A stretch of DNA of 64,000 nucleotides from Amphiscolops sp. MND2022 (GCA_964187785.1 OZ076409.1:64978001-65042000); one strand, 5' to 3'; shown: positions 889 to 48,850, counted from the stretch's first letter. A program made the numbers and translations. Notes: generated by a model not told the origin, from the sequence alone.

Positions 889-3800
889 CTTTCTTTGGAG
901 TGTCGTGAGATGGCGGCCAACACAGAAAGAGTGGCAGAAATACAGGCCATAGTGGAGGCTATCTCGAAGGCGAGTCTGTAGGAGCCACTTGCGTCATAGA
1001 TAAGACCACCAATCACAGGTCCACAAAGACACCCTATCCCCTGAGCCAACATCACCCACGTGAATCCGTTGCTCTTCTTGCCGACTACTTCCTGCAGCGT
1101 TTTTCAATTATAGAAAACAAAATGAAACAAGTACTAAGTACTTTTGGTAAAAGTGCACATAGAGCACAAAATGTGAACCATTCAGAGTCACACTGACAAA
1201 AAACTAGTCGCTGTAATATTTGAGCTTTTTTTCTTAAGTGAAAAGGCGCCGACTAAAAAGAGTAAACAAAAAAATTTGAGTTTTCAAAAATGCTGAAAAA
1301 ATTTAGTCATTTGAAATTTCAGTAATGAATTATCACTTTCAACACATCTTGTAACTCTTGTTGAAATCCTCCATACTCGATTAAATTTGATAATAATCCT
1401 GCCGAGATTCTCAAGAATCATTGAAAATCTTAGTAAGTGTTTCAAAACACAAGACACCTCAGCGCTACTGTCGTAAGCATTTAAATTAATACCACCATCA
1501 TTCTGATGGTTATGGTTATGCTTGCTAGTTGAACTGTCTTTGGGGTTAATATTTTGCAGTCCTTCGGAATTTATTTCCGGTCTCTCGGACGGAATGTCCC
1601 ATCTGTTTTGTGTCATGTGTCCTGATCCGGCACTAAGGGCGGATTGGATTTGTGGGAGTACTTGGTTGCTTATTGCATCATTAATTGCCCTTTGGATCTG
1701 AGAATTGACACTACACATCATATCATCTAACTCTCTTGATAATCTAGAGTTCAATTCACTTGACAACTTGTTAATCTCAGCACTAGAGTTGCCACCAATT
1801 GAGTTTCGACCATAATTGGCATTATTACCAGGATCAATGTCCCTTGTGACTGAGTGCCTGTTTTCACCACTATTTCCTAGTTCATCTGCAGAGGTACTAC
1901 CAGGCCTTCTGCCGAAATTGCTACTAACACTTCCGTCCCTTTCATTTCTATTGAAGTGGTTTTCCCCTAGCATTATGTCAAGGTTCTCCAAGTCAGAAAG
2001 CATCTCAATTCCTCTAGACTTTCTAGCTTTCTTTTGTTTCCTTGTAGTAGGCATCAAGGTTTCAAGGTTGAATATTTTATTTGGTAATCTAGTCTTGCAA
2101 TCTATAAATGCGTAACAAATCAACTGATCTGAACAATCGGTATGGAATTAATAATCACCTCAAGGAAACATTGCTATATATACCCTTACAAGTGTGATCA
2201 AATTCCATTTGTAATCGACAAATTCCTTAATGGTCATGAGGACCGACATACAGTTAGATAGTTAGCACCTCGAAGACTTTCAGGAATTCGTCCTAGTAAG
2301 GTCAAATGTTATTCCAAACATCACGTGGTTATAGGTGTGACAGGCGGCGCGCCCAACTTACATTGACCGTGAGTTAACATCAAACAAATAACTAACGTAC
2401 TTAACATCAATACAAATAACAAAAATGTTAACAATGCACTGTTCATTGCATTCCTTATTACAAGGTGTTGAGACAGCACGTGCTACCACGCGGCTTGCCA
2501 TGTGCCGTCTAATTCACGTATCAAATTGAATAAATCATGATCAACAAACGCAGCAGTGACATTGGTGCAAGTTATTTTCACGAGGCCGAAACTGGCCATG
2601 ACCGGGGTTTCAGTCTTGCACTGGGAAAAGGTGGGGGGGGGCTTCATTCCAACTGCAATTATTATTATGCTTATTTCTCACATTTAAGCAGAGGGGGAGT
2701 ATAATTATAGCATCAACAAGTGGACTAAAGTGAATTTGAAATAATAGGTCCGGTTATTACTATCAAAGCAACGTCAATTAACTATTTGTACAAAATGGCC
2801 GGAACCGGCCGTTTGACCAAGTAATACAGCACAGCAAGCGTTATTTAGGAAATAGGCCTAATTAGGCCATGATAGCAACAAAGCTAATATAGCACAACAA
2901 ATACAGCGCTCTGATTGGATAAGACAATGCGCTCAAGTGACGCTTTTGGATCAGCGCTTAGCATCACTTGAACACGTTTCCTATACTGCCTTACAGTTGC
3001 TTTATATTACATTGCTCTGCTGTAATTGCATTCAACACATTTGCAACATAAAACATCCCAATTTGGACAATTCCAAATTGTACTTAACAGACTAATATTC
3101 AGTTTGGATAAATAAACTAAAATAGTTAAAGCGAGTCTTGGCAATTGCAGTTTTGAGTTTAATAAATGGGTAATGTACCTGGGGTAATTTCTTGTCCGTA
3201 TCCCGAGGTCGTATAGTTGTTGCCATCACAGGCGGCAGCCTGCGACACTGCGGGTGCAATGAAAAGTAAGCTGCCGGCGTTAAGACCGTTCACGTACGCT
3301 TCCCGCCTCAATTTGGTGATGTACTCAGGCTCTCCTCTGGGGGTCGATCTGTCCATATACCACTTGATTTTTTCCTCTTTGATTTCATCTACTGCTCTCC
3401 CGCAGACCATGCAACTAGTACACCGTTGTCTGCTTATATCGTCGTAGGGCCTCGAGTTCTGAATATGATATGAGGCACGGAAGCTCCCACTAGTTGATTG
3501 GACCAAAGGGGTGTCTTTGCTTGGGCCCTTTTCTTGATCCGGGGGAGATAGGGGCGACTCCAAAACTGGCAAAATCGTACTACAAATCTTGATTTTTGAT
3601 TTTCCGGCCTTCTTCGGGGGGGGGCGTAGCACCTATCTATGTCGAAATACCTGTGATCCAGTTTAGGTGTCATCTCAGTGTCCGTCTTTGACGTGCTTGG
3701 TCCAGCCACCATATCATTTTCCGTTGTGTCCACCGTCATAATTCGTCCTGCGATCAGCATTGGGCTCGACGTAACCTCTTTCTCTATGCGGGCGATTAAT

Positions 3801-6800
3801 TGTTCCGTGTCGGTAGAACAGTCCGATTCCCAGTATGAGGACTCTTCTTCATCGCTAGAGATGTAGATTACCGAATCAGTAGATTCATCTGAGTCGCAAC
3901 CTTCAAGATCAAATAATTTCCTTGAGAGGTTAAATTTGCTCATTATGTATTTCTTTGCAATTTTGAGTCTAGGCAAGTCAACTGTTTGTCGATGAAATAT
4001 GAGATCGAATGAATTTATCAAACTTAGGGTATTAGCCGAGTTCGGTCTTTTCCCGGCAATTCGTTGTGGCGGTAGAATTCCTCAGTCGAATCTCCCAATC
4101 CGACATAAACATTCTTGAATGGAATTCCATAATTAGTTGGCTGCCTTTGATAATCCAATGTTTACCCCCCATCTACTACACCGCTTGGAGAGGTGTGAAT
4201 AACACTCGAGTCATCAAAACCAACTCCACTATTTTCAAGTGGGTAATTAACAGGTCGCTTGAAGGTAATTAACTGCGCTCGTCGTAGCTCTTTCTCAACA
4301 TGGCGTTAGCCAATCAGAATTACCCGTTGATAAAATGAAAAATTAATAAATAAAATGGCGAAAAATAATAATTTTGACTATTCTAAAATGGCGATTTCTA
4401 ACTAAGGGTAATAAAGGCAACGGAACAAAACGGTAAAGGTAAGTAGGGTAAAAGGCCGTAATCGGCCACTCAACTAACGAAGTTATAAATAACGAGGAAT
4501 TTTCTGTACATTTCGCTGGCAGACTCCGTGTACAGTTTTAAATATGTAGATAATCGAATAATATTAGTCTGATAATTCTTCAGCCACGAACTCCAACTCT
4601 CCGATCCTATCTGATTGTTACATTTTCAATTCCATCTAACTTCCATTTGTCTCCATCCAAATTCAACACATTTGCATATTCGTTACACTTTGCTATTACG
4701 ACGTCCTTTCCTCTCATCACGAGCGGCATCTCCCTCTCAGAGAATCTCTGGTTCCTTCCTTCCCCAGCCGAGATTGGCTCAATCACACAGTCCCTTCGTT
4801 GTTCCTCATTCTTCTACCTTGGACTAACGATACTGGAGAAGCATGTCTTCGAGTACAGGTTGGTCTGGTTTTCACATGTTGAACTAGCTTAGCTTGATCA
4901 GGGCTAAATTTCGTTCGTACAGCGCTTCCTGTTTCCACTAATAGGCACGTGATAACACGTTTTGTTCAAGTCTAAGATACTTCCGGAAGATTTCTAGCGC
5001 GGTAATATGGATTCTTTTCGAGGAAGCATACCGCCAAATTTTATCTCTTTTCGTTTAGAGAACCAAACAACTGAAGTTGTGAATACACCAGCTAACCCCT
5101 CTGACAGCGTTTCGACAAGCAACCCCTTGTCTGAACAGACTGAGCAAGTCCAGCATCCAGCTACGTCCCAAGAATCACTCGGCCAACGAATTGACGAAGC
5201 CACTTCCTCCCATGACGCCGATAGTGACCCAGATGTTACTACATATGCAGACAATATGGTACGTCAGTTGGAGGGAGCGCAAACATCAAGCCTTCCGCAA
5301 GAAGGGACAGAGCAAAGAGGCCAATTCTCAGAAGTCAAACTTGATACCCCAAAGGATCCTGTCATTACGCCCATCACTGAGCCTAGAAGAGCGAGCACCC
5401 CACTTTCTGATAATGTGGGGGAGACCCCAAGTGCTGACCTTTCTGCTTTAGAGTCAGCCTTTCGAGTAGTCGGGACACCCGGATCCCAATTAGTTGAACT
5501 TGTGGATATTGATCTTTCAGCCAACACCACTGGAGATAGCCCAACCCTGCAGCAGGACACGGAAGCAGCTTCCTCGGTAGGAGACGCTCCACCCCTCCCC
5601 AGTGGGGAAGTAAGAGTTCGATACCTCACTGAGCCCAGCGGAGATGAGGGGGCAACCGACCAGTCCAGCGTGATAGCTCCAGTAGCTCTATATGGAAGTC
5701 ATCCTTTCTCTCACGCCTCTGGAACAGATGGAGGGGACGAAATTGGACCTGACCCTCACGTTCCAGGTACCAGTGGGCCGTCGTCCGGGCAAGGCGCGGC
5801 TCAGAAAGAACCACCTCACCTCTCAGGAAGGAGTCGGGCAATTCTCAAGGAGTATTTTGATGAGTCGCCACCCTTGAGGTTCCCCGTAGGCCAATCCACC
5901 GTCACCTTCACAGAGCCGCAAGTATATCACTTGTTGAGAGTCCTTACCGATGAGACTCTAGGACGGTCCTTCTCAACCATGGAAAAAATGGTTATTGATG
6001 CGGTTCGAGGCAGGCCAGCCATTGCTCCATCCAGGACTGCACATTTCTACTCGGGTAGACGAGCTCAGACTCCTGGACCTGCAGCCATGGGAGATTCCAG
6101 CGGAAGTGACACCGAAAGGGAAGCCACTCTGGGGGACAGAGATGCTGGATCAACTGAGACCGAAATGACAGGAGAGTCCTCCTATTATGGGGAGACTGAC
6201 AGCGCAACAGAAATGGATCTTATAACCAAGTCCTTCAAGAAGGTCACACAAGGTCAAGGCGCTCCTGAACCGCAAACTCCCAGTCAAGACATATCACAGG
6301 ATGTTGAGATTGAAGCCCCAGAGTCCAGTAGCCAAGATGATACTTTGCTTGAGGTTAAGAATCAAGCTCTAGCCGCACCCAGCGCTGGATCCTCCGGGAC
6401 TAAAAAGAAGAAAGGAAGCAAGGCCCTCTCCAGACGTGGGGTCCCTATGCGGGAGGAATTCTTTAGCAAAATTGGATGGACGAGATCCTTCATTTCTGGC
6501 CCAGCAGATCCTCTTCATAATCCCCTCATGGTCTGGTGCCACATTTGTAAAAAGAATTTTTCCATAAAGTCAAAGGGGCCATACGAAATCCTCAGGCACC
6601 ATCGGACTGCACGTCATCTGCGGCGAGACCAGCGTTGGCGATACGAACACCTCCGCAGCGTCGATCCAGTCACAGGGAAGACGCAACACCGAGTCCGAGG
6701 TGGGAACGGGAAACTCCTGACCAAGGTGGAGTTAGCTAGAGAGCTGCCTAAATTCAGGAATGTTGAATTAGTGGACATTGGTGAGCGCTTTCCTTTTTAT

Positions 6801-9800
6801 GACGACTTCGTCAAAGGCTCCACCACTACCATGGCCACCCCTGAAGCTCGCCTCAAAACTCAGCTCTGCCTGGTTGGCGATTACATCAGGACCCAAGGCG
6901 ATATGATGGTCTTGCGCAACCTGTGGTCCCGAATTGGATCGTTCACCAACCATCAGAGCAGTTTCAACGATTTTGATTGGGGTGAAGAAAGATTGTCGGT
7001 AAGTACTTTTCGCTCCACTCATTGACAGTCTCTCCTAAGTCTTCCTCTTTCCTATTTAGTCCAAAAGGTGCTTTCTGTCTTTAGGCGATTTTCCAACATT
7101 TCTTCATCTGTTGTCTTGATGAAATCGCGGAGCAAGTCAACTCCCAACAGTGCTTCTCCCTCGAATTTGAAACAGTAGGAATTTTCAAACACATGTCCAT
7201 CAAGTTCTGGAAGGGGTCTGAACTCTGCAGGGTGTTCGTCTGTCGTAGCTCCCGATTCACTACAGATGTTACCGGCGAACTGGGATCTCTTTCTCGCCTC
7301 CTCTCCGCTGTGTCCACAAAGCCCGGAATAGTCGCCTGTTCGGGATGTCATCCAGATCTACCCAGAACCATTGATGAGTCTGGATATTACAACCAAGGGG
7401 TTCAGAGCTGTCCTCGATTTGAACATTTCTCCTTAGCTGGCCTCATGCATAAAACCAGCTACAGCGTCTTTGGGAAAATAGATTTTTTCTCTGTCCTGCA
7501 AGCTCTGATGGTCTCTCTGGGCGGTTCTCTCATGGAAGACTGGGTCATCAGAAGTCCTGAGCTCACCAAGGTGAGTAGTTTTCTTATAGAATCTTCATCT
7601 AGGGAACGGGAACTGGGTCAGGACGTTTAGATATTCCTATCATGCTAACGCAGGTTTAATTGGTATTTCAGGCCATAACCAGTTGCAAGCTAGAAGTACC
7701 AACCCTGCCCATTCTTTGCCGAGAGCTCATTGCCGAGTGGAAGTCTGTGGTGCGCTACCTCACTAATCACGCACCCTTGCAAGAAGGATCTGGCTCCAGA
7801 GGAAGGGTTAGATTTCCTTATCTGCACTTAAGCCCCTAAGGGTTTGGGTTGTCCTTATCCGTCAAACAAACCAAAGGTCCGTTTTCCAATCGTCAATTGG
7901 CCATATGTTTGTTCCAGGCACAAAGTTTCGAGTGGTCACTGATATGTGACGAATTCTTCACCCTTAAGCTGGAGTTCTTCAGCAAGATCGTCAATGACTG
8001 TGAGTGTAGTCCTGTACAATTTTCGTGAGAGAAAACTGTCTTGAGTTGGACATCAGTTTTGTTTTTAGTCGTTTCCAGCTTCACAGTGAATCTGCAATAC
8101 CGCCGGGATGCTTCCTTCTATCTATGCGGAGAAGTTAGCCGCTTCCTCAGCCTGCTTTGCTCCCGAATCTATACTCCGGACACTGCCCCAATTGCCAACG
8201 CTTGGTTTCTCCTCCTCCGGTTCCAGACCAGTGAGGGTACTTTCCTCCCCGGAGACGAATACCTGATTCGTCTCAAGATGAGCAATCGAGTGGCAACGGC
8301 AAGCAGGGTCAAGGCTGATGGAATCCATTTCGGCCAGAAAACTGAACGTCCTGCCATCCTGGCCACTGCCGATAAGGTAAAAGCTGATTTCGTCAAGGAC
8401 AGCCAGCAGTACATCCAGTTTTTGATTAATGGAGTACTCGAGAAGACAGCTTTCAGCACCAACCTCATAAAAGGATTGGCGGCCTTTGATCCTTATATCA
8501 TGCTGAAGCGACCCACGGATGTAGCTTTGCGGCACTTCGAGGTACTCTACAACACCTTTGCACTTCGATCTTGGGTTGAAGAATCAAATGAGTCTCAGTG
8601 TCGGGACCAGTATATTCAGTTGCTGGACCATCTCCAGACTGCCTTCGGTTCCAGCTTTGATATCACTAGCGTGGAACCCGATTTGATTCAATTCCTGATG
8701 GGGCTTGATTTCCTCCATGAGCGTCCACACTTGTTATATCTCTTCAAATTGAGTTGTTTGTGTTCAACCACCGTCAGCCCAAGTTACCCAGATGTCACCT
8801 TTGGAGAGGTCACCACTGCAGGAGGGCAAAGCAGATTTACGGACCTGGTCTTGCCTTGCCAGAGTTACATGGCCAATGTTGCCGGATCGGTTTTACGGAG
8901 CAGTGAAGACTCCCACTTGGCCAAGTTCTCTGCTCTAGCTGAGTCCTTTGGACGTGCTGCCTTTTCCTCAGAGTACGATCCTTGGGTTTATACTGACACT
9001 TTCGGTCGGTCAAGAATCTATAAGTCTCTCCTGTCCACTCACCGCAAAGCCGACTCAGCTCCGAAGAGGGTTTCAACGCAGGTCAATTTGGCAGAGAGTA
9101 GTACCGTTGAAGAGCAGTCTGCAGTAAGGATCCCCAGTAGCAAGAAGCGGAAGAAGGGAAGGAGTGTTTCCCGATCATCATCATCCTCTGTCGTTGGTAG
9201 TCCTAGTAAGGATTCTTCTACTAAATCCTGATTCTGTACATATGTATTTATGTACATCAAACTGTAAACTCTGTTGATTTCTTTATTTCTCATTTTGTTG
9301 TCACATTTGTATTCTGCTATCATTTCTTTGTTTCATGATCCCATATTTATTCACTTGTGCGGGATCATTGCTTTAATGCCCTGTTGTTTATTCTGAAAAT
9401 TCAGCTTCCGGGGCCAGAAAAAAAGAAATAAAAGGAAAAAGAAAATGAGCTAAGCGTTCTTTTGGACGCAATTTACTCTTTTCCTAGTATCTGAAGTCTT
9501 CTGAGTAGTTTGGGTTAGGATTAGGCCTGAGATTATATTTCCTTCCTCTGGGGCTCAAGCTCTCTTTTCTAGCATCATTTTGCGATATTTCGGGCACGAT
9601 AATATCATCCCCCTTTTTCGGAGAATTTTGTGCATCGTTTTCATTCATCAAATTCTTTTCTGGAAAATTCGCATCGTCTTTTAGTCTTTCAACCGTATTC
9701 GGCACAGGTTTTTCTTGATCCGTTGTGGAAACGGCCGGATTCGGCCAATCAGAGTTTTCATTCTCATTTGCTTCACCAGGTTCATTAGCATTGCTGACGT

Positions 9801-12800
9801 CATTTCTCATTCTTTCGGTTCTACTGCGCACAGCGTCGTTGACGTCATTCGGATAATCAGTCGTGATTACATAATCACTTTCATTCTCGTTTGCATCATT
9901 CACATTCGTTTCTGGCGTAGTCGGCCTCTCGCCATTCGTCAGGCTAGCCGGAATTGGCTCGTTGCCTCGTGTAGCTAGTTGCTCACCAAAGTTTGTTTCC
10001 CACGTTATTACATACAAGTCGTCTTGCGGAATGATTATTTCGTCGTCCGGCTGTAGGCGCTGTTCTCGGAAATTGTCCTCAAGTGGCTGATTCGGAATAA
10101 ACTTTTTGAGACGAATTCGATGCAAAATCTGCGTTTTATTTGTATTAAGCCTGCGGATGATGTAGTTCTCATTAGGTAAAATCTTCTGGACTATGAACGG
10201 TCCAACCCAACGATAATCCCTAAATGGAATTTTTGATCCTTGATGATCCGCTTTCGGTTGTAATACAAAACAGTAATCGCCCTCTTTGAGTGGGGCGGCT
10301 TTGGCTTTCCTGTCGTAATACTCCTTATATTTGATATATGACTGCATGATATTCTGCTTTGTCTTGTCAATAAGGAGTTTGGTTCGGTTCTGGATTTCTT
10401 CTGCGAATTCAGTAGTCGGATGGATTTGCTCATTTGGGTTCATTCCAAGTTTGTGATCCAAGATGTTATATGGGATTCTCCCATGGAACACTCTTGTCGG
10501 TTCGCATCCGATACTGGCATGATAACTAGTGTTATGATTGAGAACTGCTAAAGGCAAATACTTATGCCATTGTCGGCGATATTCTCCACATGCCATTTTC
10601 AAATTCGTTTTCAATGAGGCATGTGTTCGCTCTAACTTCCCGATAGTTTGCGGGTGTTTTGTCGTTGCACATTTTAGGGTAATGCCTAAAATCTGTGTAA
10701 TTTCCGCAATGATCGTGGAGGTAAAGGCAGTTCCCTTGTCCGTAATGAGCGTCGTCGGTAGGTAAGAATGTTTGGTCATAATATCAATGATTGCTTTAGC
10801 TACATTGATCGCTGATGCGTCCGTAAGAGGATAAGCAAACAAGTATCGAGAGAAGACATCAATTGCAGTTAAAACATTTTCGTATCCTCCACTTGGGGGA
10901 AGATTCGGCAATAAGTCAATTTGCATGGCGTCTTCGGGTCCAAGGTCCCATTCCGGCAAGTTAAGTAGTTCGGGCGTGATTGTTGCATTTGGGACTCGTT
11001 TGTCCTTTGCACATTGTTCACACCCTTGTACCCACTTTTTGACATGTTTCGCCATGTTGGGATAATAGTATCTCTGTCTGATCTCCTGCAGCATCTTTGA
11101 AATGCCTGGGTGCTTGTGGGCTGTCCCGTGTAGGGATTGAAGCAATTCTGGCAGCAAGTGTTGCGGGAGAAGAATTTGATGGTATTTTATATTCCCAGTT
11201 TCATCAAAATATTGCCTTGTTAGTATGTCTTCCTTGATGACAATTCTTTCCAGATTATTAGCGTAATGCCTGTATCGAGCATCTTGTTGCAGTATGTTTT
11301 CTGAGTACTCTTCATGAAGGAGCTTCGCTTTCAGTTGTTGCAGTACTGTATCTTTGGATTGCTCAATAATTATCTGGTTCGTTTTCCTCAATCGGACCTG
11401 TATTTCAGGTTGTTGTTTGACTAAGTTAGTAGATAGGGTTTGTATTGTGATAGTAGGTTCTTCAGTTACAGGGTTTTTCCTGATTGTTTCTTTCCTCGCC
11501 CAATATTGTTCTTCAGTCTCATCGTCGTCATTTGTGTAGAAGATTTGCTCTTCCTGTGAGACTCCTGCTGATTGGACGTTTATTTCTATTGGCAACGTTT
11601 GTACATCTTCTCGGATTTTCATTACTAATTTGTCCTTTGGGTCTGCTTCCAATCGGGACAAGTAATCCGCTGCCGTATTCTGTGCTCCTGGGATGTGCGC
11701 AATGACAAAATTGAACTGAATTACATAGTCGCACGCATTCCACAGGGCTGGGGGTACGATTTTCGTTTGGAAAAATCTTGTTACGGCTTTGTTGTCGGTT
11801 AGGATTATGACCGGTTTCGGTGCACCCCAGAAAATATGCCCAAATTCTTTAAATGCGAAGTAGATCGCGAGAAATTCTTTTGCATAAATTGACATCTTTA
11901 TCTGGGCTGGGGTGAAGGTTTTTGAACCATAAGCAACCGGTGCATATGATTTGCGGATTGACGTAAATTTCTGACTCGGGTCATCTTCAATTAGTACTGC
12001 ATATCCTGCAGCACCAAAGCTTGCATCTGTCATTAGGGCAATTTGCTTGTTCGGGATGGGTTGTTGTAGGGCCAAGTCGCAGCATTTGTCTAGAGCTCGA
12101 TTAATTTCCTCAAATTGTTGAACCAGTTCTTTGGACACTAGGACTTTTTCGTCACTCTTCAGCATCTTGTAGAACGGAGCAAGGCGTTCAGACAGTCTTG
12201 GGACATAATTCCGGTAGTAGTTCAAGAAACCCAAATATCTCTGTAGAGCCTTTTTCGACTTCGGAAATTTGGTTTTTTCTAGGAAATTCTGAACATTCTG
12301 CCGTTGGGGCTTGACGCCTTGTGCGGTTATTGTCCTGCCAAGGAAATCGATTTCTGTGGCACCAAAATGGCACTTGTGCATCGTCAATTTAAGGCCTGCT
12401 TCCTGGATGCATTTGAAAGTTGCTCTCAGGTTAGCAATGAGGTGATCGGCGTCGTTGGCTGCGATGCCAATATCGTCTACATACTGTGCACATTGGTCCG
12501 CTTTTATGACTTTGTCAAGGTACTCTCTCATAAAGCTAGAGAATGCGGACAGTGCTCTATTAAGGCCTTGTGCCAGTCGTCTATATGCAAATGTGCGGCT
12601 TGCAAAGTTAAAGGCCAACATTTCGATTGAACGTTGGTCAGCCATCGGAAGGCAATGATACGCTTGTGAACAGTCTAACTTGCAAAAGAGTTTCTTGCCT
12701 GCCATGTGTTGGGCGGCATCGACTAGGGTACTGACTGGATGATTATTGTTAATATAATCATCAGAGATTAGGTTGTTGATTTTTCTCAAGTCAACCAGAA

Positions 12801-15800
12801 GTCTCAGTTTCCCATTCGGCTTCTTTTGTGCGAATATTGGGCTGGCGTATTTCGAGAACGGTAAGGTAGTTATTATGCCATATTTGTGGAGCATGGCTAA
12901 TTCAACTAATATGTCCTCCTTTAAGTTTATCGGTGCAGGGAGGCTCTGGCTATAGGCTGGGGAATCATCTTTGGGTGTCAGCTTCACTTTGAATTCCTCA
13001 TTCATGCCTATGTCGAATCTATGTCTCGCAAAAATATCATGGAACTCCACTAGTAATCGTTCGATTTTCTCTTTTTCATCAGGTGTCAATGTGGAGTCTT
13101 TCCAGTCAAAGTTTTCCAGGAATTTTGTTCTAGATTCCTCGTCCTTTGTGGGATCAAGTGATTCTAGTTCCTGTAGGGCTAGTAATTCACGGAGTATCCT
13201 TTTTTGGATTGGTGTATGTTCTTCCGGATTCCCTGGGTTCTCTGGGGTTGGGAACCAGTAGTTTTCGGTATTTTGTGGATTCTTGTTAGTCTTGATGAGA
13301 CTACTGACGTAATGGGCTGCCTGCTCTTGGTCATTTTGTAGCAAATGCCAGGTTGAAGCTGGGTCTACCGGTTTAACGTATTTCATCTGTTCTGGCGTCA
13401 TGACTGAGAAACTGGCAATATGGAGTCCCTTTTTGAGCTTGTAAGGGTGGTCTGTGAAATTGTTCACCGGTATCTGTATATTGCCATCATTCAAACTGAC
13501 CAAGGCTGGACAGAATGTGATGTCGCCTTCTTCATGGAGAAGGTCGCTCGGTTGTAAAATCCCTGTGACCGTGTTTTCAGGGTACAATAGGGAATTGGTC
13601 CTAATTAGGACTCTGTCGTTTGGCGGAATGGTTATTTCGGTAGGGTTCAGAATTGGTTCAAGTATATTCGAGTATTTGTGATCAGCTGTTTTGAGCTGCA
13701 TCGAAAAGAATGGAAAGTTCAGTATTCCTTGCCTCATGTCCAGAACTGTATGGTTTCTCTGTAGGAACATGAGTCCTATAATCGGTCCTGTCAAGTGTTC
13801 CATTACTATGAAAATTTCATGGAACTCTATGTCACCAACTTCAAATTTGAGCTCTATCGTACTCTTTGGAGTTTCTAGTTGCCCATTTGCGACCATTATC
13901 TGGAAATTCGGAGGTGGACCCTCCCGGATGACTGATTGCGGCGATAGGAGCCTGATTTTCCGGAGGTCCATTTCAGGGATTGCACTGGATAAAGCACCAG
14001 TGTCAATAAGTCCATCTATGGTCAGTTCCCCAAAGTCCATAGGGAAATACAGCATGCGTTTTTTGCATTTCAGGTTTATGCTGGTGGACAGAGGAATACA
14101 GTCTGGTTCTCCTTCTCTAGTAATGAGGATGTTCTGAAATTGACTTTCATCAAGTAGTGACTGTGGTATTGTTTCTTCTGGTTTGTCTGAGGTTTCGGTC
14201 CCCAAGGGGTTTGGGAACACTGGGTGGCTTGTCCCATCATTCATCTGCCATGTTTCAATCAATGCTCTGGTTTTCTTGTTATGGGTGATTGGTGGATTGT
14301 CGTGGACTGATCTGTTATAGAGTTCTATGTCATCGATAACGTATTGGAATTGCAACAAATCCTGGTTGTAAAGTTCGGTATCCCAATAGGGATCTCGTCC
14401 ATAGTCAGGATCTATGTAGGTAGGGTTGTAGTCGTCTACCAAGGGAATGGGCCTGAATCGGCTAGTGAAAGCAGATGTGTAATCAGGGTCCCATACAGGA
14501 ATTGGTTTTTGGAGCAAATGGGTATTATTATAGGTGATAATGGTAGCTTTTTCCATCTGTTGCTGCCAGACAACAGAGGGGTAACCCATCAATTGTTGTT
14601 GGTATTCATGGAAAGTTTTCGTCGGAGGATCCGACCTGATGTATTGACGGACGGATATTAGTTGGTTGTATTGGAGTCGTGGCGAAGTTAGTTTTTTGAC
14701 TCATCTTTGTTTGATGAGGATTGGGTATTGGAGGACGTTGGTTTGTTGTGTGGTTTGGGTGCCTTGAAGTCATTGTCGGTGTCTGAAGAATCTTCAGGTC
14801 TGGTTCGTTTGGGTTTCAAGTGAGCACCTGCTCCCTGCCAACATCGCTCCTCTGGATGATTTTTCTTGCCACAAGTCCCGCATTTAGGGTACGTTTTCTT
14901 CTCCGTCGATTTGCCTTGTTGGGCATCTTTTTCTTTCTTCTTTTTGAGTTTTTCACAGTCTTTGACCATGTGGCCCTTTTCCTTGCAGTAGTTGCAAGTT
15001 ATATTTGACATTTGATTAGTGGACAGAGGGGTTTTAGTCTTGGAGGATGAGGAGGTCATTGTTGCCATGGGTAGGTCATCTGACTCCTCAAGGGCGTTAA
15101 GCTCTAATTCCCTCTCCAAATGAGCAACTATTTCGTCGTAAGAGCCATTTTCTAATCTGGCCATGTTGACTGATCGCTTGAGTTTCGGAGGCAGTTTTGC
15201 GTACAATAGGCTGTCAATCATTTTTTGTGCATGATCGCCGAATGCTTTTTCTGCCCCTTGATTCAATTCTTCAAGGAAATCCGGTAATTTCATCGTGTTG
15301 GGATCAAAGACCAAGCGGTGCCATTTGTGCTTGGCAGTCGCTTGTGACTCGGGTTTGACGTATTTTCGTCGGAAAATGACCAAAACGTCTTCAAGAGTCT
15401 GTCGGTTGGTCGAGTTGATATTTCTGAACGTCTGAAGAGCATTTTTCCTCAAAAGCGAGTGGAAATGGGTAATCTTCATTTGTTCAGTCATTTCTGGCTG
15501 CATCTTGATCATAGTATGAAACAGATCTTCGAACAGTTCAAATTTCTCACTTTTGCCGTCAAAGGTCATGGTATTTGAGTTGACCGGGCGTATGGTGAGT
15601 TGTTGGGCTGTTGGTCGGTTCTGCATGTTTGTCAAGACATCTGCCAGTCTAGTAATTGGATCAGATTCGGCAACCGGAGCGGGTCTTTCTTGTGCTGGGA
15701 TCGTCGTGTTAAGGTTGATGTCTTCATAGGACTGGTCAAGATGATTCCGCGATAGAATCCGTCCTGTGAGAAACTCAGGAACTTGATTCGGAGATTCGTT

Positions 15801-18800
15801 GTCTCCTGTCACCATGTCGTAAGCATTTAAATTAATACCACCATCATTCTGATGGTTATGGTTATGCTTGCTAGTTGAACTGTCTTTGGGGTTAATATTT
15901 TGCAGTCCTTCGGAATTTATTTCCGGTCTCTCGGACGGAATGTCCCATCTGTTTTGTGTCATGTGTCCTGATCCGGCACTAAGGGCGGATTGGATTTGTG
16001 GGAGTACTTGGTTGCTTATTGCATCATTAATTGCCCTTTGGATCTGAGAATTGACACTACACATCATATCATCTAACTCTCTTGATAATCTAGAGTTCAA
16101 TTCACTTGACAACTTGTTAATCTCAGCACTAGAGTTGCCACCAATTGAGTTTCGACCATAATTGGCATTATTACCAGGATCAATGTCCCTTGTGACTGAG
16201 TGCCTGTTTTCACCACTATTTCCTAGTTCATCTGCAGAGGTACTACCAGGCCTTCTGCCGAAATTGCTACTAACACTTCCGTCCCTTTCATTTCTATTGA
16301 AGTGGTTTTCCCCTAGCATTATGTCAAGGTTCTCCAAGTCAGAAAGCATCTCAATTCCTCTAGACTTTCTAGCTTTCTTTTGTTTCCTTGTAGTAGGCAT
16401 CAAGGTTTCAAGGTTGAATATTTTATTTGGTAATCTAGTCTTGCAATCTATAAATGCGTAACAAATCAACTGATCTGAACAATCGGTATGGAATTAATAA
16501 TCACCTCAAGGAAACATTGCTATATATACCCTTACAAGTGTGATCAAATTCCATTTGTAATCGACAAATTCCTTAATGGTCATGAGGACCGACATACAGT
16601 TAGATAGTTAGCACCTCGAAGACTTTCAGGAATTCGTCCTAGTAAGGTCAAATGTTATTCCAAACATCACGTGGTTATAGGTGTGACAGGCGGCGCGCCC
16701 AACTTACATTGACCGTGAGTTAACATCAAACAAATAACTAACGTACTTAACATCAATACAAATAACAAAAATGTTAACAATGCACTGTTCATTGCATTCC
16801 TTATTACAAGGTGTTGAGACAGCACGTGCTACCACGCGGCTTGCCATGTGCCGTCTAATTCACGTATCAAATTGAATAAATCATGATCAACAAACGCAGC
16901 AGTGACATTGGTGCAAGTTATTTTCACGAGGCCGAAACTGGCCATGACCGGGGTTTCAGTCTTGCACTGGGAAAAGGTGGGGGGGGCTTCATTCCAACTG
17001 CAATTATTATTATGCTTATTTCTCACATTTAAGCAGAGGGGGAGTATAATTATAGCATCAACAAGTGGACTAAAGTGAATTTGAAATAATAGGTCCGGTT
17101 ATTACTATCAAAGCAACGTCAATTAACTATTTGTACAAAATGGCCGGAACCGGCCGTTTGACCAAGTAATACAGCACAGCAAGCGTTATTTAGGAAATAG
17201 GCCTAATTAGGCCATGATAGCAACAAAGCTAATATAGCACAACAAATACAGCGCTTTGATTGGATAAGACAATGCGCTCAAGTGACGCTTTTGGATCAGC
17301 GCTTAGCATCACTTGAACACGTTTCCTATACTGCCTTACAGTTGCTTTATATTACATTGCTCTGCTGTAATTGCATTCAACACATTTGCAACATAAAACA
17401 TCCCAATTTGGACAATTCCAAATTGTACTTAACAGACTAATATTCAGTTTGGATAAATAAACTAAAATAGTTAAAGCGAGTCTTGGCAATTGCAGTTTTG
17501 AGTTTAATAAATGGGTAATGTACCTGGGGTAATTTCTTGTCCGTATCCCGAGGTCGTATAGTTGTTGCCATCACAGGCGGCAGCCTGCGACAGCTACTTT
17601 ACTTTTATAGAAACTTGGACCCTAACCGGCGTTTTGTATTAGTTTCGAATTGACTGAATTTTAGAAAAATAGGATGATAATCAAAATTGCGAAAAAATGA
17701 AGAGATTAACAATAACGCGCTGTCGTTTTAACAAAAACAAAAAATTAAGACAATAACGCGTTGTCGTTTTTCACGTTAAAGAATGTTACTACTATTAACA
17801 TCTCTCTGTAGACTACTTCATGTTTTTGCGCAAAAAAAATGTAGACAGAGACTGAAATACAAGATTGCCATTAATCCACACCAGGTATTGATTTGTTAAT
17901 ACCCATTGCCATTGCTTACCTGAGTGACATTGAAGGCTGAACTGGCCGCGAGCCCGTTTGAGAACCCTACCCCTAAGGAGAGCACGTAATAAGACCAGGG
18001 GTCAGACAGGGCGAAAGAGGTGAGGAAGCAGACACCCAACACTCCGCCCTTCAAGGGGTAGCACTTGAAAAACTTGAGGGGCCAGATGGCTGAAGCTACG
18101 GGCAGGATCACCCTAGGCAGGGCGCCCCCGATCCCTTGTAGAAGCATGATCTGTTGCTGCAACAAATTATATTAAGCATTTCTATAGTCTCAAAGAATGT
18201 TGCAGGTAAAGAAAAAGCAACCATGTATTACTTGTTGAAGCAGCGACTTGAAAAGGCAAGTTGGTTCTTCGGAGCTATGTAATCAAGAGAACCTGAACCA
18301 GTTTACCGGGTAAATTTCAATTGGTCAAGCGAAAAACTTTTTGGAGTCGGATTTGATTTCAGAATGGATGTCTTTGACATTGGTGTGAAAAGTGAAACGA
18401 GTCTTTCATGGTTCTACAGTAATTGCAAATACTAGTTACCAACACTGTTTCGCAACAAATTTTCGGCACTTTTGGTCATTGGTTCAACTTTCAAAACCGT
18501 AGACCTTATGATGGCAAATCGTTTGAGTTGCTACCATACAGTTTGTCGCGATTCAATCGTATTAAAAAAATAATATACATTTTTGGGTATCTACGATATT
18601 TTATCGGTAAACCGATTGAATAGCTTTTTTGACGATTAATCAAATATTCAAAAATTTTGATTGGTCCAGGTTCCAGTATGCAACCAATTGACAAGTTTCC
18701 AACATCGTATTTGTGTTTAGGTTCAAACGCTAGAAGTGAAAGAAGCAACGAATTTTAGGCTCCGATTTTAATGATAGTATCCTTTTCATCAGATGATAAC

Positions 18801-21800
18801 TTTCAATATTCTTCCTGCTGTGTAAGTTACGAAGTCTAAAGTTAAGCAGCCTGAGCAATCAACCTAACCGAAGCTTTTTTCATAAGAACTAAATTGATGA
18901 TAGCCGCTAATTCTCTAATATTTTTTCCGGTATACTGGCACTACCAGGCAGGCAGTTCATCGATGGTCACAGGTGGGAACGAATTTGTCTCTTCTGAGAG
19001 CTCGCCCATTAAACCCAGTAGCCCTTACCTTTAAACGCCCGGTTTCCCTGAGTTGTCAGCCCAGACAAATTTTGCATGAATAACTTAACTAACCTGTTCA
19101 TTTTTGTAGCCTCTGGATGCCATTTCTCCTGGCAGGAACATGAGACCGATGAGGTTTGAGAGCCAGAATGTGAGGACGTCCAGAATGAGCCAGTAAAAAG
19201 AGGGATACTTCATCATGTCAGTTGAACACTGGCTGAACATACCGGCAAAAAAACCGCAACGAGAACTACCAGCATGTCTCTCATTCCTTTTTGTATTGCG
19301 AGAGAGTTGATCTGAAAAAAGATACATCGCTATGAAACAGATTAAAGTGAAGCCCTTGTTCCTCTTGATGTTACAACAGAAGTGAAATATATAACTGATA
19401 TGACCACACTATAGGCATTTTCTAACATTCACTTTTTCGTATGATATCGAAGGGCCTCTTTGGCATTTTTTGACAATGTGCGAATTTTGGAAAAAAAACA
19501 ATTCAAAAGAAAGCCGCCTTTACATTTTTAGCACTGTCAGCATTTCCAGGTTTGTTTTAAAATGCCTCTGAGCTCACTTAATGTTGTTTGCGGAATTCGA
19601 GCCTATAGACGGGAGCCAATTTTGACCTGTTCGCAGCTTGTATTTGTCATTTTTCTGTACTAAATACCAAAAATTTGTCGTGTTTGCGACCATAGAATTT
19701 TTTAAAAACTTCAGTACTTATCAGTCATGAGTCGAAACAAGCCAGAAGAGGCACAAATATGTGCCCTGCTTAAGGTTCGAAAAACTCGAAGGCCTCAATT
19801 TCACAGTGCCGAAAAAAACAAAAGAGGATCCTTTGGTCCTAAAAGGCCTTTTCGAACTAAAAATGTCAAAAGTTAAAGGAGTTTTGAAAATTATAAATTT
19901 CTTGAAAACAAGGTCACACATTGTCAAAAATAACACTCAAATTCCGTTTTAATAGAAATAAATATTTCAAAGTATAAAAGGGAGAACTCTTTCAATCAAT
20001 TTGGCAATTTGTAGAATTTGCATGATTACATTGACCGGATTGAAAAAAAAACAACTACAGATGACTATGATAGTCGCGCTTTATTCCATAAAGCACCAAC
20101 TAAAAACCAGCTTGTTTTTGATTGAGCAAATATCAAAACTTACTGTGACTGCCAGATTTGGAGTCCAATGCTTCCAGGGCAGTTACTGAGCCATAGCCAA
20201 TCACAAACATGAATATAGCTGTGCCTTGGATAACTTCGTGCCAGGTTTTGAACTGAAGTATATAGCTATAGACATATCCAGACACGATCTGGGCCAGAGC
20301 AAACCCTAGAAGACTGTAAGCACTGGCACCTTTGCTCTGTTTCGCCTGGTGCTTATGGGGGAAGTAGGATCCTGCCTGACTACTGATTGCGTAGTAGATT
20401 AGGTTGGACCCCATTCCAAAGGAAACGCCCAGGGTTGCAAAAAGAGTCAAGACTGTTGTGCTCAAGGATGCAAGGTAGAGGCTAATCACGGAGAAAAAGA
20501 GGCCCATCTAAAACACAAGAATTTGGATGTATTTAAAAATGTGCAAAATAATTACCATGATATGTAGTAAGAAAAGTAGCGTGCAAGAGCAGCAGACTTT
20601 CTTATGAAAGCTACTCTTGTTCAAACTGCTTGAACGTTTCGCATGTTTTTGGAGGTTGGCAACAAATATTGACTATCGTTTTCTGAAATTCTCAGGGAAA
20701 CTATGTGTTCGCTCCGTTGCAATCGACTTGTATCAAGCTGCTTGATTTTCATCAATCATCTGGCTGAAAAATAAAACCGTAAAATTTTGTGGGTTTCATT
20801 ATGCATCAGTTCTATTTTTGGTCGGAGCTTTCGTAATACTTTAATTTCAATTTCATATGAAACTTTTATGGCATTTGGCCTAGGGGATGAGTGCGTGAGT
20901 GGGCATCAGGAGAGCGTGTGTTTGAATCTTGCGTTGAATGTAGTTTTTTGTGCTTGCAAAAGTAGTCGGGAGACCAAATCGTTGGGTTATTTCGGCACTC
21001 TGTGATTTTTTGTTGGCACTTTTTTTATTTCAAAAAAAAGTGTTTCAACTTCCCAGTGTAAAAATTCTTGAAACTCTTTCCAAGATCTTGCATATTCTTA
21101 CATATTCCTGTTTACTCGTGAAAGTCTTGTTAAGATCTTGTTTACTCTTGCTTCACGCAAACCTCTTGAAATTCTTGATGAATCTTAGAATCTTGTTAAG
21201 AGTCTTATCAAGAGTGTCAAGAGAATGAATGAGTTGTGAAACAAATGGCAATTTTGTATACAAGTACTTTGCTGTTGTTCGCACTACCAGCTACACTTTC
21301 ATTCTTTGAAGTATTGCATATAGGACAACACAAAGTAGTGAAATTCAAAACGTGATAGCTTGGTTGGTTGCGCGAAAACCCAGGTTTTCGATCTTTGCGA
21401 ATCTGTGCAGATCTGCAGGGTTTTTTCTGCAGGATTCTGCAAAGATCGTTGCACTGAATCTTGAAGATCCATACAGATCTGCAAGATCTTTACAGAAGTG
21501 TGCAGATTTACTTTAAAGATTTTTTGCAGAAATATGTTTTTCTGCAGCTTCTAAGGAACCAATATACTGCATTTTTGGACTTCTTCAACTACTTCATCCA
21601 GTAATTTAGTTCACCAAGGCTAGGTCAGTTGATACTCTCCATCACTCAAAATTCTCGAGAAGGAAAATTTGACCCCATCACAGTAGTTTTGGTGATTGGA
21701 GAATGCACCTTATTGGTTATACACCGTAATTTATCCATTTCACTTGAACTTTCCAGAAGAGGTTTTTGAACTTTGAGAAGCTCGTTTGCCTTATTGACTT

Positions 21801-24800
21801 CGTTTTGATGGATGAAATTTCACATGTGGCAACCTTCTGGGTTGGTAGATGTGTTGATAAAGTGGTGTTGTTGTAATATTTCGGAAACATGGTTTGTTAC
21901 AGTAATTTAAATAATTTCTTGTAACTCAAAATATATTATAGTAATTTACTGGTCATTGTTTGGATCTGTACAGATCTGTAAAGAACTGCAAAACTCTACA
22001 GATCTGTACAGATTGCTGCAGAAAATATTTCATCATTTTGACATAAATGAGATTTCTCTCGGGTTTTAAACATTTTTATTATTCGTTTGACATTACTGTG
22101 GGGTTTCCATTGTGTTTCTAAGTAGGTCATTTTTCTTCGAATCTGCACATATCTGCAAAGATCTGCAGAAATCCTGCAGATCTGCACAGATTCGCAAAGA
22201 TCGAAAAAATGGGAAGCTGTGGCATAATAGGTAGGCTGATCAAGCTGCAGTTGGCGTCAGTTTTTGTTTGTTTTCATTCACTTTTGTCAGTTAATCTCTT
22301 GAATTTCTTGGCACGATCTTGCAAGATCTTGCAAATTCGTGGATTTCTTCGTAAGAGTCTTGGCAAGATTCTTACCAAGAACTCCAGGAATATCCAAGAT
22401 TCTTATCAAGAGTTGCAAGAGTTTTTACACAGGGTTCGCAAAAGACATCTCACGAGTATAAAAGTACCCATCTTAGAGTTTTTTGGTACTCTGCGAATTT
22501 TTTTGAAAAAAAAATAAACAACTTGTATTTTTTAAGGTTTCCCTTGAAAAACAATGGTTGCCGAGCTTAAAGGGTCTCTTTTAGAGTTTTTGGCTTAACG
22601 AAAGATTTCTTGCAAAAAAATAAAATTTTTCGTGAAATATTCAAAATTTTGGATCAAAATTGTGTCGAGTTAAAGAAAAAGGGCTTTTTGAATCTTATGG
22701 GTATTCCTCCTAGTAGTTTTCGGCAATGTATACTTGATACAAATTTTGACAATAGTTTCTCTTTGTATATTTTGAAAACTTTGTTTGAGCTTTGGGCCGC
22801 TCCCGACGTGGGCCGTTTCCGACTTGTTAAAGGTAGATGAGACAAGCCGGGAACGGCCCAAGTCGGCGCCATATCCAAGGCTCAAAAATAGCAGAAGGAC
22901 TTCAAAATGTCAAAGTATTGGTGAATTGGGGACCCTTTTAAGAAAAAACAACAAAAGCTCTCAAAAAACTAAAAATTGAAAAAATTTTTTTTTTTGAAAT
23001 TTTTTGTCGAAGTTTCCGGTAAGTCGCATAGTGCCGAAAAATGTAAAAGGGGGGACGCTTTTTACCTCATGTTTGACGCTTTGGATGCGTTGAAAATGAA
23101 GTACTAAGTACATATGGTAAAAGTTGGTAAATGTGCATTAATTGGATTAATGCACAAAAAGTGGACGTACGCGTTGAACTGACGAAAAAAAAAACTAGCC
23201 ACTGTAAGAGTCGGGATTTTCTTCGAAAACGCCGACTAACAATATCTTTTCTCTGCCGTTTTGATGCAAAATAACTTTATTCGCCTTTTTAACTGCAGTG
23301 TTGTGAACATTAGCGTCACTCCTGACTTATATTCAAAACTTAACCATTATATGCAGGCCTGGAGCATGTAAAAAGTTCTAGCAGTCTCGATTAGTGTTAA
23401 AACATTACAAAAAACCTCTTTGAGTGAAAGTCTATCTCTTACAAATATGAATGATTCAAATAGTTAAGGTCCTTGTTATGGTTTTGCACGCTTCATGTGA
23501 TTCATACGCAACTTGCGTGGCACTCAAGCACCCACTACGTTCCTCAAACATGTAATATTATCACAAGTTATCAGGGACGTAGACAGACAAGTCTGGACTG
23601 GTCAAAGACTCTAATGCGACCAAAATTTCGAACAACTTGCAAAACTGTGCGTGCGAGTACATGGTTCAAGATGACGAGCAATTTGGATCAGAACATGCAA
23701 TGAGCACGCAGGGCGTGAGAAAATACGGAAAATTGTAACGGCATGTAGTGACAGGTCGCTTAACGCGTTAACCGAGGTGGAGAAACCTGCAGAAATGGGT
23801 AAATCGCTCGGGACGGGCGCCCATCGCCACAGATCCATTTTGTCTCCACGGGTGGAATACGTCCCGAGGCCGTGGGTGCTTCGACGAGCACGGTCCCACC
23901 GATCCTAATCTTTGATTGCTAATAGTTACGGGTATCTTCCTGACACATTAAAGACCACTGCTTAACTAGCACATAAAAACAACCCAAGAATAAAGTGAAT
24001 TTCCATTCCCAGGGTGACGTCGGAAAATAGTCTGAAATTGCAAAAACTATTTATCGGGCTAGTAGATACAGCTAACAGCAGTGAAAATACAACGTAGCAC
24101 GAATAGATATTGCAGACCACACAGCTAAAAGCTGGGGCGCAGGGGCTTCAAGTACCAAATAAGATTCCTTAAGCAAAAGCCTCATTTTCCGGTCTCGCAA
24201 TTTAGGGTAGCATTATGCTGAAAATCAATAAAAACCGGAGGTAAGCACCAAATAAGAGTCTTTCTTGAGGTTTTCACAGTCTTCATGAGCTATCTCGTTT
24301 TCTGTGTTCTCGCTCGGTCTGCTCTTGCTCTCGTTTTGCTTCGAAAACAGCGGAAACAGCGAAAACCATATGCCTAGTGCTGTCACTATCGACTAATTTT
24401 GGGGTACCAGAGGGTCCCGTTACACATTATTAAAAAGTCTAGGATTTGAAGAAAATGGACTTATTGCATGTCCGAATGAGATGTTTCGCGAATTCCAGAA
24501 TATAAAAAAAAACTTTTTGAACTATTTGCATATCATTGACAATGTCCATTTCATTTCAGCTTTTGTTTACGAACTGGTGTCCTAATGTTTCCTAATCTTC
24601 CAATTCTGTGATTTTGCGTTAATTGAGAATTATAAACCTCCGCCCAAACAAATGACTGTTTCTAAATTTTGATTGAAATTCATTTTGTTTACATTATTAA
24701 AAAAAGAATTTTTTTACTATTCTATTTCGTGACCTCATTTTTTCTGAAAAGCATCCCTCTTATCATTGAAACGAGAATCAATTTCCGTAAAACTCGAAAA

Positions 24801-48100: not shown

Positions 48101-48130
48101 ACTTCCACTTTGGAGGGTCCCCCTTGGTGT
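45120..48130 (+). pseudogene. Older decayed copy of the LINE family at 57228..60990, rearranged and interrupted by MITEs
   Basis: Fragments match that element: 'LKVSHDVI', 'LLDLRKAFDTVNHEIL', 'ILPRDYE...SECLADI', and the 3' UTR motif CTTTGGAGGGTCCC. Confidence 0.75.
47005..47760. mobile_element. Nested non-autonomous elements (A interrupted by B, B interrupted by inverted A)
   Basis: AGCAAGATGG is duplicated at 47101..47110 and 47700..47709 around a CCAGTTTGTAGAA-repeat element. 47350..47520 is a reverse-complement copy of the joined outer halves. Confidence 0.6.
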
Positions 48131-48850
48131 GAATGATTATCAATGCAAAAAAGACGGGAACGGCATATATCGGCGCTATATCTAAGGCCTAAAAAGAGCA
48201 AAAGGACATGAAAGTGCTAAAAAACTAAAAGCATAAAACTCACAAAAAGTTTTCACACCCCTTGGTGTGAATGATTATCAATGCAAAGAAGACGGGAACG
48301 GCATATATCGGCGCTATATCTAAGGCCTAAAAAGAGCAAAAGGACATGAAAGTGCCAAAAAACTAAAAGCATAAAACTCACAAAAAGAGTATCAAACTCA
48401 TGAAAAACCCAAAGGACCCAAAACTAAAGGAACTGGCACGCTAAAAAAGAGTCCCGTTTGCATTTTTTAACATCCATTGTTGCAAAACATCAAAAAATTG
48501 ATTGGAGAAAAACAATTGATGAAAAAGAGTCTTCCGGGAAAACGTCTCACAATGCCGAAAAAACTGAAAGGGGTGCCCTTTGGGGAAAAAATTGTTTTCG
48601 AAAAAAAAGTCTCACAATGCCGAAAAAAACTGAGAGGGGGACCCTTTAGTCTCTCCTGGTAAAGTATGTTACGCGGCAAAAGAGGCAAAACTTTTTTTGG
48701 TTCAGTTCGCTAGGCCACATGATTCAATTTGGGACCATAAATTTTGTAGAACGTCTAGGTACTTTGATGGTCAGTTCCTGAGGATTGAAAAAAAAGGAAA
48801 GAAAGCGTCACTATAATAGTCACTATAATTCCTTGAAGCGCTGATTAAAC
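48120..48850 (+). mobile_element. DINE-1/Helentron-like repeat with a 139 bp tandem duplication of its 5' junction
   Basis: CCCTTGGTGTGAATGATT...AAAACTCACAAAAAG occurs twice (~48120 and ~48258); same internal repeats as 33925..35420. Confidence 0.65.

Follow-up and report, generated by a model that had tools for sequence, protein, structure and literature searches.

The DNA analysed here is a 64,000-nucleotide (nt) window of the 1.07 Gb genome of Amphiscolops sp. MND2022 (GCA_964187785.1 OZ076409.1:64978001-65042000), with positions counted from its first letter. Its minus strand carries a full-length Ty3/Gypsy long terminal repeat (LTR) retrotransposon, and in the 6.2 kb between pol and the 3′ LTR lies a plus-strand gene, opposite to pol, which probably derives from a hAT transposase. 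The element occupies ~16 kb between two copies of a 5-bp target site duplication (TSD), GCTAC, at 1464-1468 and 17593-17597, within the 4-6 bp range for Ty3/Gypsy. The 3′ LTR (1469-3247, minus strand, 1779 bp) has the expected TG...CA ends, with terminal TGTCG/CGACA, and differs from the 5′ LTR (15815-17592, minus strand, 1778 bp) by one mismatch and one gap. The near-identity of the LTRs, together with the TSD, indicates that the insertion is very recent. pol (9484-14700, minus strand) is an open frame of 1738 amino acids (aa) with protease, reverse transcriptase, RNase H and integrase in Gypsy order; RVT_1, RT_RNaseH, Integrase_H2C2 and rve were matched above the Pfam cut-off in that order, and the protease fell below cut-off but was N-terminal. 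The first-pass annotation of the window had placed the gene between pol and the 3′ LTR. This layout stands, with the addition of a second extra open reading frame (ORF), sense to pol, between the gene and the 3′ LTR (3159-4081, minus strand).

Structure of the antisense gene

The predicted gene has six exons, all on the plus strand. Exon 1 (4843-4858) contains the ATG and is followed by a donor, GGTTGGT, that is invariant in six of six elements; intron 1 (4859-5058) is unusually conserved in sequence. Exon 2 (5059-6998) encodes an acidic, Ser/Pro/Thr-rich part, a helical island, a basic patch, a finger and the helical region preceding an RNase H fold, whose strands b1-b5 lie in exon 3 (7085-7570). 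Exon 4 (7672-7806) covers the region of the RW motif of hAT enzymes, absent here, and is followed by exon 5 (7918-7999) and by exon 6 (8069-9231), which encodes an all-helical region aligning to Hermes 367-609 and a basic Ser-rich tail. The five introns, of 200, 86, 101, 111 and 69 nt, are all GT-AG. The joined exons encode 1273 aa, and their sole stop codon is the terminal one, so that the intact spliced frame of ~1270 aa claimed in the first-pass annotation was recovered.

Comparison of copies supports the predicted six-exon model. In 29/29 near-identical sister copies (the top-scoring matches) none of the eight splice sites of introns 2-5 has been lost, and 28 of these copies are stop-free over this region. 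The positions of the exon junctions are shared by subfamilies down to ~30% identity, and homologues without intron 2 (P0111, P0308, P0327 and P0334) or without intron 4 (L041 and P0187) run colinear through the predicted junction. When databases were searched for homologues of exon 6 that extend further as spliced proteins, none was found. Intron content varies by lineage, intron 4 being missing in one subfamily and intron 2 in homologues from other assemblies; such variation amounts to gain or loss within a retrotransposon-borne gene.

The gene is shared by a Gypsy clade

Exon 6 gave 7263 first-look candidates in the genome. Among 107 that were scored, 40 were at least 99% identical to the window copy and 67 were 77-82% identical. 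For at least 37 of the 40 near-identical copies, the matches listed include an integrase match on the other strand, at a constant distance. Six elements were fetched from the 87 integrase matches that had no partner among the matches listed; all six carry a homologue of 43-56% identity in the same place, and the large exons are open in five. An exon 2 match was likewise found near 24 of 42 checked integrase matches without a listed partner. The same tail-to-tail layout recurs in four more distant copies, in which pol is 60-91% and the gene 27-62% identical. In a deep lineage, at least 79 of 126 gene matches pair with one of 131 integrase matches; all 79 pairs are tail-to-tail, and 78 are separated by 1.97-2.15 kb, again among the matches listed.

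A scan for hAT-style ends around the gene yielded no convincing pair of 11-bp terminal inverted repeats (TIRs) with an 8-bp TSD; the 18 loose candidates each had at least four mismatches in total. Both the lack of such ends and the presence of the gene at the same position in other copies agree with the first-pass annotation. On these comparisons the gene is evidently a family-wide component of a Gypsy clade and not a nested insertion, and the family is large and recently active. At two places in the assembly (G000 C5:67769767 / 67784112 and C12:14843707 / 14858172) gene copies lie 14.3-14.5 kb apart, which is the length of the element minus one LTR and suggests tandem arrays sharing an LTR.

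Protein architecture and relationship to hAT transposases

The N-terminus of the protein (~aa 1-450) is acidic, Ser/Pro/Thr-rich and disordered, with a conserved helical island at ~aa 260-325. Basic patches lie at aa 454 (KKKKGSK) and aa 1245 (KKRKKGR), and a C2H2/BED-like finger at 6537-6617 has the conserved pattern Cx2C...Hx5H (C499/C502/H519/H525). The acidic N-terminus, the patches and the finger are where the first-pass annotation had located them, with the correction that the conserved His pair is H519/H525. By Pfam the finger was called zf-BED in one of 108 family members (E 0.0099) and zf-C2H2_ZN292 in 15 of 108.

In a wide structure search, Hermes was, among the matches listed, the sole chain found for both halves of the protein, and it was matched colinearly. 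The domain order appears to be that of Hermes, with a finger, a helical region, RNase H strands, a putative helical insertion and C-terminal helices, at an identity of 6-15% (PDB 8edg, 4d1q and 2bw3). An Atlas cluster with PF05699 in 60% of its members was also matched, at 0.90 and with a low recognition score. PF05699, the C-terminal dimerisation domain of hAT transposases, was not matched by Pfam in 76 family members. Nor did any Pfam transposase family match the exons of the window copy or the sets of 76 and 108 family members. A sequence-profile search of PDB gave no match, and hhalign and hidden Markov model comparisons with eight hAT proteins of the same genome did not score above shuffles. 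Foldseek with a model of exon 6 gave no meaningful match, its second look covering a set that did not contain Hermes, and a search of the genome for DUF4371 found nothing anywhere, with equally silent controls. The claim of a domesticated, hAT-derived factor is upheld in part; the gene probably derives from a hAT transposase. The genome's own hAT transposase frames (L050-L055, 496-697 aa) have recognisable DDE motifs, and none is detectably close to the antisense gene.

Hermes requires D180, D248, R318, W319 and E572 (PMC6027215). Equivalent positions were assigned by aligned range and motif register, without residue-by-residue superposition. The position assigned to the first Asp is E681 (7169-7171), with Glu in 41 of 48 rows and Asp in none, which bears out the replacement reported in the first-pass annotation. 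The second Asp position corresponds to S738 (7340-7342; Ser in 43/61 rows, Asp in 0/61) and the His of CxxH to F764 (Phe in 40/47, His in 0/47). At the Glu position, in exon 6, there is no conserved acid, the best acid column nearby having Asp in 21 of 76 rows. No RW motif was found in the exon 3-5 translations of the copies read; TRW is invariant in all eight genuine hATs of the same genome. Inspected in this way the DDE triad is not intact, and by its sequence the protein is very probably catalytically dead.

Selection and exchange of modules

Ratios of non-synonymous to synonymous substitution (dN/dS) across copies, a comparison proposed in the first-pass annotation, are far below 1. Exon-level values were 0.01-0.11 in seven comparisons with dS of 0.17-0.30, ~0.22 for the very young pair L038/L039, and from 0.03 to 0.07 between the window copy and those 78-90% identical copies that still yielded a value; most comparisons between subfamilies were saturated at synonymous sites. 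These values show strong purifying selection on the finger, helical and RNase H scaffold.

A profile running from the finger to exon 3 matched 948 clusters (50% identity) at E ≤0.001, and 150 clusters, among the matches listed, appear to be family fragments. The best matches in the genome to P0111 and P0327 are only ~44% and ~36% identical, so the family reaches other assemblies. A scan of JGI metagenomes for homologues gave 404 pattern matches, none of which was confirmed.

In trees of ten elements, integrase and the antisense gene share the same deep split (100/100), and two lineages with the gene at the same site have integrase cores that are 80% identical. Within the near clade, integrase identity and accessory-protein identity are uncorrelated (Spearman -0.12, 21 pairs). 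The integrase cores of L034 and L042 are identical and their accessory proteins 60% identical. Across the integrase region the DNA of the window is 88-96% identical to that of five elements in which synonymous sites of the accessory gene are saturated or nearly so. The shared deep split and the lack of correlation in the near clade together indicate that the gene has long been inherited with the clade, while pol cores were swapped between gene-plus-LTR modules. These data show that the gene moves with the second ORF and the LTR as a module and that pol cores are exchanged among subfamilies.

Conserved non-coding blocks

Upstream of the gene, a block at 4298-4393 (plus strand) contains CCAAT and a repeated AAATGGCG motif, with invariant columns in 6/6 aligned elements; we take the motif to be YY1-like. 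A second block, of ~90 nt at 4506-4596, is strongly conserved, and intron 1 contains the conserved motifs GCTTCCTGTTT (4924-4934) and CTTCCGGAAG (4980-4989), which are presumably ETS-like. Both 4506-4596 and 4859-5058 are much more conserved than the synonymous sites of the gene, and may act as promoter sites or as a signal in the RNA, for example for packaging. From these motifs, 4298-4393, 4506-4596 and intron 1 are likely to form an internal promoter of the antisense gene.

Other features of the element and the window

The second extra ORF is split over two frames by a frameshift in the window copy. It is a single frame of 275-321 aa in five other subfamily copies, and likewise one frame in L038-L043 except where cut. 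Its product is acidic and has a CxxC motif, with a weak Spin-doc finger match (E 0.021) and no Pfam family above cut-off. It is head-to-head with the transposase-like gene and extends into the LTR, which holds its 3′ end and also repeats the 5′ portion of gag. The gag frame itself, with a zinc knuckle (14688-16493, minus strand), has its start within the 5′ LTR and runs on through the primer binding site-like sequence TGGTGACAGGAG, which begins with TGG and directly follows the 5′ LTR (15803-15814, minus strand); no tRNA gene matching it was found within the window. Some 195 gag codons after the first Met sit within the LTR (15815-16493, copied at 1469-2147), which is unusual for an LTR element, and this LTR-borne ORF is kept in three other subfamilies (L065-L067). 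Because the 1779-bp repeat includes some of gag, it could have been a composite of a short LTR and a truncated second element; the TSD and the terminal TG...CA rule this out. A weak dUTPase-like Pfam match (E 0.11) at pol aa 353-433 falls between protease and reverse transcriptase, as is reported in rotifer elements.

The window element and five others lack a polypurine tract next to the 3′ LTR, suggesting that end processing is atypical. The LTR edge is pyrimidine-rich in the window and in four of the five others, the remaining element ending in AGGGGAG, and in the window 82 nt separate the 3′ LTR from the closest purine run of 9 nt. The pyrimidine-rich stretch at 3248-3290, within the second ORF, has CAG at the LTR edge and resembles a splice acceptor (the others compared were L038, L040, L041, L043 and L067). 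Over its first 22 nt the LTR shows no difference among the six elements examined.

Elsewhere in the window there are near-perfect palindromes without a spacer at 31683-32096 (414 bp) and 45645-45745 (101 bp). Units of AGTGCCGAAAAA and GGGGGGACCCTTT mark a family of dispersed repeats at 19796-35423, 48120-48673 and near 1194-1259, which are probably non-autonomous transposons.

Discussion

The antisense gene is real, conserved and functional for the element in some way. Our interpretation, offered tentatively, is that it encodes a nuclear DNA-binding activator or anti-silencing factor for cognate LTRs, derived from a captured, dead hAT transposase. An ancestor of the Gypsy clade would have acquired a hAT-type transposase gene in reversed orientation, the simplest route being a nested insertion whose ends were lost. 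LTR elements replicate via RNA, in which antisense introns are left unspliced. By this established mechanism the introns of the gene would stay in the genomic RNA and survive retrotransposition because the gene is antisense. Transcription from its own internal promoter, at ~4300-5000, and splicing would give the 1273-aa protein. This would have retained the finger, helical and RNase H scaffold under purifying selection, lost the cutting chemistry at the assigned positions, and gained or retained the long acidic disordered N-terminus and two basic patches. As a sequence-specific regulator it may bind DNA of the LTR or the internal promoter within its own subfamily, and activate it or shield it from silencing.

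The first-pass annotation had proposed an LTR transactivator, an anti-silencing factor or an integration tether. Motif arrays lend the regulatory interpretation no support: in LTR and internal DNA they did not exceed shuffles in eight of nine stretches, the exception being A/T-rich. The undamaged frame reported earlier holds for the window copy. The family-wide picture is less uniform, in that older copies of the gene are often broken by frameshifts or stops (most of L031-L037, plus L043 and L056). Such breakage would favour a transposon remnant, nested or hitch-hiking, that does nothing for the retrotransposon, and standalone gene copies may occur in the genome. This explanation is already largely refuted and seems exceedingly improbable, given the lack of TIRs or a TSD, the shared site in two lineages with 80% identical integrase cores, and dN/dS far below 1; decay of old copies also hits pol, which has short open frames.

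As the main alternative, the same dead transposase might act after reverse transcription, holding cDNA ends or the integrase complex and protecting them or tethering them to chosen chromatin. Such a role would re-use the two-end DNA holding of a transposase, and would suit the conservation of the entire end-binding scaffold, beyond the finger, as well as the inverted TGTCG/CGACA termini, the identical LTR start and the missing polypurine tract. We consider it unlikely. Integrase cores have been swapped among very different accessory proteins, which argues against a tight integrase partnership; the conserved LTR start is attributable to overlap with the second ORF; and an acidic disordered N-terminus would better suit a role in transcription. 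It is also rather unlikely that the gene came from another insertion-domain DDE transposase (Mutator/IS256, P or Kolobok) or from a host gene already domesticated from hAT (ZBED, FAM200 or ZMYM1 type), since both halves match Hermes colinearly, ISCth4 is not among the best 50 matches of the C-terminal half, and the ten best Atlas matches with a family for the N-terminal half all belong to one family or clan. Retention of an unusual catalytic or metal-binding activity, through the prevalent Glu at the first position and invariant acids elsewhere in exon 6 (D1145 in 76/76, E908 in 65/65), is very improbable: 7/48 rows, among them the subfamily copies L056-L058, have V, K, Q, L, T, G or A in place of this Glu, no acid occupies the second position, and neither CxxH nor RW is present.

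In its fullest form the regulatory interpretation, which we put forward with some further reserve, is that a complete hAT transposase was domesticated into a spliced, separately promoted, dead regulator, with hundreds of variants carried as swappable LTR modules on a shared pol core, and that this may have aided the spread of thousands of copies. The antisense extra ORFs carried by Gypsy elements have long been puzzling, and in the present case one can name the donor class with fair confidence. With a nameable donor class, measurable selection and many natural variants, the idea of a dead transposase as a retrotransposon's own regulator becomes directly testable.

Comparison with known systems

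In plant Retand/Grande elements, antisense ORFs lie between pol and the 3′ LTR family-wide, with TRP28 in 97% of clusters (PMC11963269), and the origin and role of Gypsy antisense extra ORFs are described in reviews as unknown (PMC7264820, PMC11963269). Tat elements carry an antisense PMD related to those of MULEs (PMC4408406), and a sunflower Athila ORF is similar to Transposase_32 (PMC11728184). The Tat/Retand/Grande group thus resembles the present element in having a conserved, family-wide antisense ORF in the same position, a proposed DNA-binding regulatory function, and a link to DNA transposons through domain name or phylogeny. It carries a small domain of unclear origin, whereas here a six-exon gene is colinear with a whole transposase; Pfam matched neither TRP28 (PF04195) nor PMD in the exons of the window copy or in the sets of 76 and 108 family members. 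Bdelloid rotifer LTR elements have also acquired extra genes, their ORF3s being env, GDSL esterase or DEDDy exonuclease (PMC5408684), and the word 'transposase' does not occur in the main text of that paper. We found no literature on an LTR element with a hAT-derived gene, in a search that lay outside Repbase, most subscription journals and bioRxiv supplements. The design, of which the first-pass annotation knew no described example, is therefore already known as a layout; a whole spliced, dead hAT-like transposase as cargo is not found in the literature searched.

The protein differs from Hermes in that the assigned D180, D248, CxxH, R318/W319 and E572 positions are not kept, in its ~450-aa acidic N-terminal extension, in the absence of TIRs and in its location within an LTR element. 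ZBED1, FAM200/ZBED5 and GTF2IRD2-like proteins, its Atlas neighbours, are likewise dead transposase scaffolds under purifying selection. Those were domesticated by hosts, whereas here the domesticator is a retrotransposon and the gene is multicopy, mobile and present in hundreds of clusters. Together these features suggest that one class of mobile element turned the enzyme of another class into a helper protein; if so, a transposon class would here have domesticated an enzyme from a different class.

The mode of action proposed here, element-encoded and sequence-specific activation of cognate copies, is that of the anti-silencing regulators VANC, TnpA and AtMu1 transposase (the accessory proteins VANC and ATLANTYS are discussed in PMC13547354), and TnpA is transposase-derived. 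Transposases may activate their own elements, and dead ones turn into transcription factors (bioRxiv 10.64898/2026.08.24.746577). VANC, TnpA and AtMu1 belong to plant DNA transposons and their action was shown by experiment, whereas the present protein is known from sequence alone and its action would be analogous. If the interpretation is correct, the model of the transposase as a proto-transcription factor extends from plant DNA transposons to LTR elements.

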